7,813 nucleotides of DNA from a virus (taxonomy: Duplodnaviria; Heunggongvirae; Uroviricota; Caudoviricetes), in IMG/VR virus record IMGVR_UViG_2529292715_000014, positions 1 to 7,813 of that record; one strand, 5' to 3'. Position 1 is the first letter of the stretch, and each line of letters opens with the position of its first letter. The notes beneath the pieces were generated by a model that was not told the DNA's origin, did no database searches, and saw nothing but the letters and a program-made list of their open reading frames with translations. The position numbers and the translations under genes are program-made. Below, piece after piece: positions 2,086 to 2,920 of this stretch.

Positions 2086-2781
2086 TCACTTAGGGTATGG
2101 CTGAACCTTGAATAGTTTGGTATTTAGCCGCTTCCTTGCTCGCTTGTTCAGGAATCTGATGTAGCGATACTGATTAAATTTGTGCACCACGGCACGCTCC
2201 TTATTAGCTCGCAAATACTCGCCTCGTTGCCCTCCGCGCTTAATCGCGTTCATCGTTATCTCGTGATACCACTCACCATCCAGCTCGTAGAACGTGCTTT
2301 CATGGCTGCCAATAAAATCAAAATTCGACGCCTGATACACAACGCCTGCGAGTCCGCAGCGTTCGTCAGCAAAGGACTGAACCCACTCCACTGACGGATA
2401 CAGTAATCTGATAACTTTCAGCGCGTAGCTGATGGCCCGTGATTCAGAGTTGCGGGGCATGTCGTCGTGTAGCCACATGCGATTCAACTCCATATAGCCC
2501 CGGTTATCCGTTTCAAGCACGACACGACGACCTGAGTTGGGGTTAAGGGCATATCCCCACTGGAGAACGCCAACCAGATCACGCCCGCTGAATACTCCCA
2601 GGTGAAGGTAAGAGTTATTCACAAAACGGCGGGAATAGTGCTTTGTCTGAATGATTGTGCGGGCCAGCCAGCAGGATATGGTTTCAACGCGCAGCTCCTT
2701 TGAACCATAGCCAACAATCTGGCCTTCATACTCAATAACGCACGGTTTCGTCAGAATGCGTGATTTCTTCTCTTTTCCCAC
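2086..2781 (-). CDS. mom: Mom DNA modification protein (adenine modification, anti-restriction); start assigned to GTG at 2781, alternative in-frame ATG at 2811
   Basis: Long minus-strand ORF immediately downstream of and overlapping com, ending 115 bp before the Mu right end, which is the position of mom in Mu. GTG at 2781-2779 has a GGAG Shine-Dalgarno 7 nt upstream; ATG at 2811 has none. Confidence 0.8.
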
Positions 2782-2920
2782 AATGTTTCTCCGTGGGATG
2801 CTCGCAGGCATTCAGCATTATGATGTGACGTTTGCAACGCGGACACCTGATTTCAATGTGATCAAAGGAATCCGCTTTAAATAACAGTTTGTTGCAGTTC
2901 TTACAGCGAATTGATTTCAT
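2732..2920 (-). CDS. com: Com zinc-finger translational activator of mom
   Basis: Translation [62 protein letters not shown] (62 aa) has the CxxC...CxxC zinc-finger layout and matches Mu Com as I remember it. Strong SD AAGGAGGTGAA lies directly upstream of the ATG at 2920; the track ORF start at 2938 is an upstream in-frame ATG. Confidence 0.9.
2776..2818 (-). promoter_or_regulatory. Putative mom translational control region: upstream hairpin (candidate Com target) followed by a hairpin sequestering the mom GUG start
   Basis: On the mRNA strand, AUGCU (2818-2814) can pair with AGCAU (2802-2798). Immediately 3', UCCCAC (2798-2793) pairs with GUGGGA (2781-2776), placing GGAG in the loop and the GUG in the stem. 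Confidence 0.45.

Follow-up and report, generated by a model that had tools for sequence, protein, structure and literature searches.

An intact com-mom module, probably an orphaned and silent relic, in a gutted Mu-like prophage of Shigella flexneri

The stretch of DNA analysed here (the window, 7,813 nucleotides, positions 1 to 7,813 of the IMG/VR virus record IMGVR_UViG_2529292715_000014) carries the com and mom genes of a Mu-like phage together with their promoter, Pmom. On balance, we regard this Pmom-com-mom module as probably an intact but orphaned and silent relic of a gutted Mu-like prophage, one whose survival would be owed to chance rather than to demonstrated selection. Its identity and the intactness of both genes are clear, as are the lack of a gene for the activator C in cis and the conservation of the essential residues of Mom and of the TIS stem-loop in the mom mRNA.

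The com gene (2732-2920, minus strand) encodes the zinc-ribbon translational activator of mom and overlaps the 5' end of that gene. Its 62-aa product matches PF10122 with 37 bits (cut-off 22.9) over residues 2-29, and all four cysteines (C6, C9, C26 and C29) are present, which bears out the intact zinc-finger protein described by an earlier, sequence-only reading of this DNA. It differs from the Com of Mu and of SfMu by the single change K52E (2767; 61 of 62 residues identical), and many intact Mu-like prophages in E. coli, Cronobacter and Salmonella encode precisely this K52E protein. The mom gene, also on the minus strand, has no stops or frameshifts, whether it is read from the GTG at 2781-2779 (2086-2781, 231 aa), which is the start annotated in the curated Mu record, or from an ATG (2086-2811, 241 aa). 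Its product matches PF25680 from end to end (251.6 bits against a cut-off of 27.1; profile positions 1-202 of 202) and is 99% identical to the solved structure PDB 8BV8; an NCBIfam scan gave no model match. Thus, mom is full-length as had been claimed, and the identification of the pair as the com-mom module of Mu was correct. By family membership, Mom is predicted to be a tRNA(Gly)-dependent adenine N6 glycyl-transferase with a GNAT fold.

The comparison of mom with the Mu reference that the earlier reading had called for shows 229 of 231 residues identical, with two replacements, R154L (2351) and V198E (2219), neither of which appears clearly inactivating. Residues are numbered on the 241-aa form as in Silva et al. 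2026, verified against R111, S124, D149 and R151. Mutagenesis has defined W48, H58, Y59, R111, S124, D149, R151, Y159 and W181 as essential or important (PMC13219725), and the S. flexneri copy has all nine, as well as the helix-turn-helix (HTH)-like insertion (~175-209). V198E falls in this insertion, at a column where E is the commonest residue among 101 homologs, and it lies inside a 25-bp patch (2212-2236, mom codons 192-200) that is identical to the mom of the divergent prophage in E. coli UMNF18 (L041). Judged by this identity, the patch is demonstrably a recombination import, and mosaicism would thus reach down to a fine scale within the gene. R154L is private, leucine being found in none of the 101 homologs and in no comparator; the position itself is variable (R in 59, G in 22, C in 10, K in 8 and A in 1). 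Of the nucleotide differences between this mom and that of Mu, 18 are synonymous and 2 non-synonymous, a divergence that therefore would have accumulated while the gene was functional in phages. Decay of mom after insertion is disfavoured as the source of these differences by this ratio, by the imported nature of V198E and by how common the K52E Com is. The TIS stem-loop (2776-2798, minus strand), which sequesters the Shine-Dalgarno (SD) sequence GGAG (2792-2789) and the GUG start (2781-2779), is identical to that of Mu, and the same hairpin is predicted for both. Similarly, the sequence at 2830-2768, at the 3' end of com and the likely target region of Com on the mRNA, is identical to Mu.

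The host chromosome is that of Shigella flexneri, by exact-sequence matches of two proteins. The window's exact Mom protein is found on 1093 S. flexneri contigs (216 with the 241-aa call and 877 with the 231-aa call), and the fusion of DpiA' to Mu sequence is present on 699 contigs named S. flexneri in an exact-sequence look-up. Positions 1-1970 are enterobacterial chromosome, comprising dpiB and about the first 115 codons of dpiA, and the Mu-like right arm runs from 1971 to the end of the window with two insertion sequences (IS), IS1 and IS600, inside it. The 5' part of dpiA (citB; 1627-1970, plus strand) is interrupted by the phage, and its open reading frame (ORF) continues into phage DNA to 2010, giving a 127-aa fusion. 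One copy of the 5-bp target duplication, CTGGG, lies at 1966-1970. Next to it, the Mu right end (attR region, 1971-2085, minus strand) terminates in ...CGCCGCTTCA at 1971 and aligns near-identically to the ends of Mu and SfMu.

A 169-kb contig, L003, carries the whole element between the two halves of dpiA. There, the Mu-type ends TGTATTG... and ...CGCTTCA are both bordered by CCCAG, which marks a genuine Mu-type transposition into dpiA. The order on this contig is dcuC, the dpiA 3' part, the Mu left end, a c-like repressor gene, ner, an A gene truncated at residue 545 and IS600, followed by the remains of the G segment, the gin remnant, com, mom, the Mu right end and the dpiA 5' part. A complete prophage would have A, B, mor, C and the lysis, head and tail genes; what is left here is only the c-like repressor, ner, the truncated A, the G-segment remains, com and mom. 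Matches to SfMu are confined to 1437-2902 and 32618-37146, with SfMu 2902-32618 missing, and nucleotide identity to SfMu and Mu is 95-97% over gin-com-mom-attR. In the history we propose, a Mu-like phage would have inserted into dpiA of an S. flexneri ancestor and would then have been gutted by an IS600-associated deletion.

Pmom has been described as strictly dependent on C (PMC3378877, PMC2582627, PMC4461284). Searches with tblastn for C, Mor and B in the window and in the full remnant on L003 found none of the three, and the interval from the middle of A to the fibre gene, including mor and C, is gone in an internal deletion of ~30 kb. The sequence-only reading had directed the search for C beyond the window and had paired its absence with the absence of a mom transcript as evidence against a working module; the first half of that pair is what we find. 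A sigma-70-like promoter prediction over 1950-3400 returned no promoter-like site, and the -35 is unchanged and the T6 run intact, which leaves neither a new sigma-70 promoter nor a C-independent change of the tin type. With a C-dependent Pmom, no C in cis and no predicted C-independent promoter, the com-mom operon is orphaned.

By analogy with Mu, where the mechanism is established, C would bind the dyad at -51 to -36 and allow RNA polymerase to use the weak Pmom. Com translated from the transcript would bind the mRNA beside the hairpin in which the ribosome-binding site and GUG of mom are buried, and would open this hairpin. Mom would then move glycine from Gly-tRNA(Gly) to the N6 of adenine in double-stranded DNA, and the glycyl product would rearrange to 6-NcmdA, which would block many restriction enzymes. 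In the remnant, C could arrive only in trans, and the operon would be silent unless a co-resident or superinfecting Mu-like phage such as SfMu provides it. Such a supply is plausible. The mor-C-lys region was PCR-positive in 38 of 194 S. flexneri strains (Jakhetia & Verma 2015, PMC4406740). The exact SfMu C protein occurs on at least 1000 contigs across Enterobacteriaceae, a count that carries no link to specific S. flexneri assemblies. From the sequence, then, we infer that the operon is silent, that it can be activated in trans and that a Mom with L154 and E198 is enzymatically competent. A literature search located no report on mom expression or momylation in S. flexneri.

The Pmom regulatory region (2921-3030, minus strand) was numbered from the Ptin7 oligo in PMC4461284 and from the description in PMC2582627. 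The +1 G lies at 2941, the -10 TAAGAT at 2953-2948, the T6 run at 2958-2953 and the -35 ACCACA at 2978-2973. The C site ATTATGTCCCGATAAC lies at 2992-2977 and keeps the half-sites TTAT and ATAAC; GATC sites are found at 3028-3025, 3010-3007 and 2997-2994, and the com SD GGAGG at 2929-2925; the com ATG is in place as well. The layout is that of a C-dependent promoter, with a poor -35 at 19-bp spacing, the T6 run, TAAGAT and a 16-bp imperfect dyad centred at -43.5. Thus, the earlier statement that the promoter and translational elements are present holds for every motif and for the TIS; it does not extend to the core that carries them. The 86-bp core (3006-2921) is 84% identical to Mu and has 13 private substitutions and a 1-bp deletion, seen in none of 18 other Mu-like elements. 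The remaining 1153 bp hold another 13 private changes, so the clustering in the core is strong (Fisher p=1.7e-9). Two of the core changes, at -45 and -41, lie inside the C footprint, at positions that already vary among the Plys, PI, PP and Pmom promoters of Mu, and six lie in the spacer. None of the 13 touches any of the 34 functionally assigned positions (P=7e-4, or 0.014 if there were 8 independent events). This allele is fixed in all 18 S. flexneri copies.

One component of the allele is a micro-inversion (2991-3013, minus strand). Its 9-bp spacer, 3006-2998, is the exact reverse complement of canonical Mu and is bounded by the 7-bp inverted repeats ATCGATC and GATCGAT, which contain GATC sites 2 and 3. 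The inversion is a single event that in alignments looks like three substitutions (-65, -61 and -57). The Dam/OxyR region as a whole retains all three GATC sites with unchanged spacing, has the 9 bp that separate sites 2 and 3 inverted, and has lost the gin DNA that lay upstream of about -108. The inversion was recognised because 18 extra IMG/VR matches to the upstream sub-motif, first candidates for carriers of the variant, proved to be canonical Mu-like sequences matching on the opposite strand. For the other promoter changes, a local template (a quasi-palindrome or ectopic copy) was also considered and rejected, the inversion alone being templated and other k-mer matches being at chance level.

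The most economical explanation of the private Pmom is the import of a promoter patch from an unsampled Mu-like lineage, that is, donor-phage mosaicism and not a promoter made in Shigella, and we hold the case for this to be about evenly balanced. The second private cluster, the mom patch at 2212-2236 that includes V198E, is demonstrably a patch of this kind, shared with the UMNF18 prophage, and the two patches are similarly divergent (~15% for the promoter and ~13% for mom). The remnant is moreover mosaic overall, with com like that of the L024-type prophages, the 3' half of mom like SfMu and a divergent immunity region, and the sparing of motifs is what one would expect of a functional but diverged allele. 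However, searches of 5,426 E. coli genomes, 50,697 phage records, IMG/VR, GTDB species representatives and JGI metagenomes turned up neither a full nor a partial carrier of the allele, and the additional matches to short motifs were random. UMNF18, a candidate donor through its immunity region, has an unrelated mom promoter, and the micro-inversion is local and of the type that arises de novo. Alternatively, the promoter may have been remodelled in situ in Shigella.

The same changes raise the question of whether the module is already functionally dead despite its ORFs, either because R154L cripples Mom or because the promoter allele is deaf to C, which we consider rather unlikely. R154L lies three residues past the essential R151, within the loop that corresponds to the R/Q-x-x-G-x-G motif of GNAT proteins, and it removes a positive charge in favour of a residue that no homolog has; yet natural homologs tolerate G, C, K and A at this position. 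In the promoter, the 13 private substitutions, the inversion in the Dam/OxyR region, the two changes in the C footprint and the six in the spacer could all matter, as do the bases immediately 3' of the C dyad (PMC2582627). In contrast, -45 and -41 differ among the four C-dependent promoters of Mu itself, and the half-sites, -35, T6 run, -10, +1 and SD are untouched, which would rarely happen by chance. Moreover, polymorphism that is entirely synonymous, as described below, is not expected in a dead gene.

We next ask how an intact module could persist in such a remnant if, as we favour, it is a relic kept by chance. The 18 S. flexneri copies differ by 0-4 single-nucleotide polymorphisms (SNPs) in 1.43 kb, and much of the decay is lineage-specific (the gin nonsense mutation, the IS1 insertion, a 262-bp deletion, the loss of the left arm, a larger rearrangement in two strains and at least four dpiB lesions) and thus recent. 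The suggestion that the prophage is younger than it looks is therefore supported. Neither com nor mom is disrupted in any of the 18 copies or of the 7 structural arrangements examined. With disruptive events occurring locally at ~1.3 per kb, the probability that none falls in 0.84-0.97 kb is 0.27-0.33. With a chance of about 0.3 of escaping disruption, and with the U and U' genes of the same arm also full-length, intactness alone is no evidence of selection. Thus, the contrast drawn earlier between com-mom and a decayed arm is real but does not single out com-mom. Survival would follow from a small target, a protected end beside the host junction and the short time since insertion.

Several observations weigh against survival by chance. 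Within S. flexneri, the mom polymorphisms are 0 non-synonymous to 4 synonymous, against 14 non-synonymous (nonsense included) to 4 synonymous in neighbouring defunct genes, as counted at 11 loci retrieved without reference to the Mom sequence. The difference gives Fisher p=0.0096 against all neighbours and 0.07 against the prophage neighbours only, and the probability that four of four changes are synonymous is 0.003-0.024, depending on the mutation model, a figure that rests on four mutations. The dead neighbours additionally carry indels and IS insertions, and a single identical Mom protein is shared by 1093 contigs. In addition, clustered private promoter changes that spare every known motif, with no donor allele, are not obviously the behaviour of a neutral relic. 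The all-synonymous polymorphisms are a suggestive hint of constraint on mom, and it is in this part that the earlier proposal of selection on the module retains some ground. A comparison of contig counts as a test of selection (1093 for Mom, 699 for the DpiA' fusion) was discarded as unreliable, given that pseudogene products are often not called.

Taken further, these observations could mean that com-mom is kept by purifying selection for host use, an exaptation in which the promoter has been re-tuned, for example for C-induced or low-level host-controlled momylation. Such an exaptation would explain not only the synonymous polymorphisms and the spared promoter positions but also why there is one Mom protein when U and U' each have several alleles, and why com-mom is intact in seven of seven arrangements when dpiB, gin and the fibre genes have been damaged repeatedly and independently. 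We nevertheless find it unlikely. Only four SNPs are involved, on two or three branches, the test against the prophage neighbours is at 0.07, and escape from disruption is at chance level and shared by U and U'. The element lacks C in cis, and no C-independent promoter is predicted; Mom is not known to benefit the host, and its expression has been reported as cytotoxic (PMC3378877). Moreover, the sole private replacement, R154L, introduces a residue that the 101 homologs lack.

A stronger version, a domesticated cassette whose enzyme is selected, whose promoter was remodelled in situ (the micro-inversion and ~10 substitutions) and which is triggered by the host or by incoming C for a host purpose, seems to us quite improbable. 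Possible purposes would be to shield chromosomal or transferred DNA from nucleases or to mount a C-triggered toxic response to infection. We thus return to the orphaned relic and see the remnant as young and probably neutral, with a hint of constraint. Only two of its features go beyond an ordinary relic, namely the private Pmom allele, which includes the micro-inversion, and the polymorphisms in mom that are all synonymous.

The inactivation of gin, of the gix site and of both tail-fibre alternatives, as claimed for this arm, is confirmed in each case. The gin remnant (3023-3211, minus strand, GTG at 3211) has a TAA at codon 29 (3127-3125) and a 384-bp in-frame deletion with its junction at 3049/3048, which removes residues ~56-183. 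The nonsense change, CAA to TAA, is found only in the window and in the copies L006 and L038, with CAA in the other S. flexneri copies; being confined to one sublineage, the lesion is very recent. In the gixR remnant (3260-3280, minus strand), the left half-site TTCCTGTAAACC and the GA core are kept, and the right half-site has lost 11 bp between 3265 and 3264. The tail-fibre variable part, of the Gp34_trimer type (3305-5034, plus strand), is split by IS1 at 4057-4823, flanked by the 9-bp duplication TATTCCCGG at 4048-4056 and 4824-4832. On the other side, the 3' part of the alternative fibre gene, of the gp37_C type (6160-6614, minus strand), is truncated by IS600.

Between the two broken fibre genes, the U-type tail-fibre assembly gene (5068-5595, plus strand, 175 aa) and the U'-type gene (5624-6157, minus strand, 177 aa) remain intact although both fibre genes are destroyed, and their polymorphisms, 2 non-synonymous to 1 synonymous, look neutral. 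The IS600 element (IS3 family; 6613-7813, minus strand) has orfB at 6657-7475 and orfA at 7511-7813, extends past the window and marks the junction of the ~30-kb internal deletion. Beside it, another 262 bp of the fibre gene that L003 retains are gone from the window strain (6613-6614 compared with L003 6711-6973), and a related strain, L030 (2849-5447), has lost the entire left arm (c, ner and A'). These two losses indicate that deletions adjacent to IS600 are probably ongoing.

Other arrangements of the locus also exist. In CP049606.1 (L027/L037) and CP026810.1 (L036), an integrase gene and the modABC-gal region stand in place of all sequence upstream of L003 position 9202; this large rearrangement removed the fibre arm and again left com-mom untouched. 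In the 3.4-kb contig L020 (IMGVR_UViG_2529293223_000012, 1-2044), the Mu right end is fused directly to an internal position of IS600, and the fibre segment is a 96.5%-identical allele; the contig is an assembly chimera or else represents a second arrangement of the remnant. On the host side, the sensor kinase gene dpiB (citA; 1-1658, plus strand), the partner of the Mu-disrupted dpiA, is a pseudogene in the window, where the loss of one base from a run of G at ~1472 shifts its frame. Its lesions are independent by lineage in the copies compared (the window, L003, L036, L037, L039 and L040), comprising the 1-bp deletion, two different Q-to-stop changes and another stop in L003, and dpiB is intact (552 aa) in CP049606 (L037). 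This suggests a relaxed or pathoadaptive loss of the citrate two-component system following the dpiA insertion.

Defective Mu prophages that keep the right end are already known in Shigella. The module has the same gene order, gene overlap, TIS hairpin and right-end position as the mom operon of Mu (AF083977, 35693-36602), and the three GATC sites, the C half-sites, ACCACA, T6 and TAAGAT are common to both. In contrast to Mu, the remnant lacks C, Mor and all other early or late functions except the c-like repressor, ner and the truncated A, and it differs by the diverged Pmom core with its inversion and by the two Mom replacements. The closest complete phage by nucleotide identity over the arm (~95%) is SfMu (NC_027382), from the same host species. 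SfMu-like remnants have been detected by PCR and Southern blot in several S. flexneri serotypes (Jakhetia & Verma 2015, PMC4406740), a study in which neither the dpiA locus nor the condition of com-mom is described. The present remnant is not a deleted SfMu, for its repressor is only 30-34% identical, its com and mom patch come from other lineages and its Pmom is private.

The immunity region of the remnant (L003 2577-3990) encodes a 169-aa repressor with 34% identity to Mu c and ~30% to SfMu c, and a ner with 68%; it is unlike those of Mu, D108 and SfMu, and the repressor ORF is intact in L003. Among the 5,426 E. coli genomes, it has one relative only, the prophage of UMNF18 (87% at the nucleotide level). 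In S. dysenteriae, the Swiss-Prot entry VCOM_SHIDY ('cryptic Mu-phage protein com') likewise points to a cryptic Mu remnant that keeps right-end genes. The S. dysenteriae Mom is a 235-aa form of the other sub-lineage. Tominaga (1997, Microbiology 143:2057) reportedly describes a defective Mu prophage of S. dysenteriae with pinD, com and mom, in which the invertase is said to be functional; in S. flexneri, in contrast, gin is destroyed. Finally, the intact Mu-like prophages L024-L033 from E. coli, Cronobacter and Salmonella (235/245-aa Mom) have an identical K52E Com and an identical com/mom overlap region, and they differ from the remnant in being complete phages with a canonical Pmom, R154 and V198. 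These prophages have an extra 148-aa ORF without a Pfam match between mom and the right end (~10892-11338), which is absent from Mu, SfMu and the S. flexneri remnant.

No enzyme other than Mom is known to hypermodify DNA by means of a charged tRNA, and several controls, of phage and of host, normally keep Mom expression shut off. Should the S. flexneri copy prove active or selectively maintained, a chromosomal, phage-derived function for DNA hypermodification would reside in a major human pathogen, with consequences for restriction barriers, for phage therapy and for methylome studies and long-read base-calling, and it would offer a clean case of exaptation in which the promoter has been rewired. 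More likely, the copy is a silent relic; the locus would then serve as a well-dated natural experiment on the pace at which different parts of a Mu prophage decay, and as a warning against over-reading small ORFs that are intact in young remnants.

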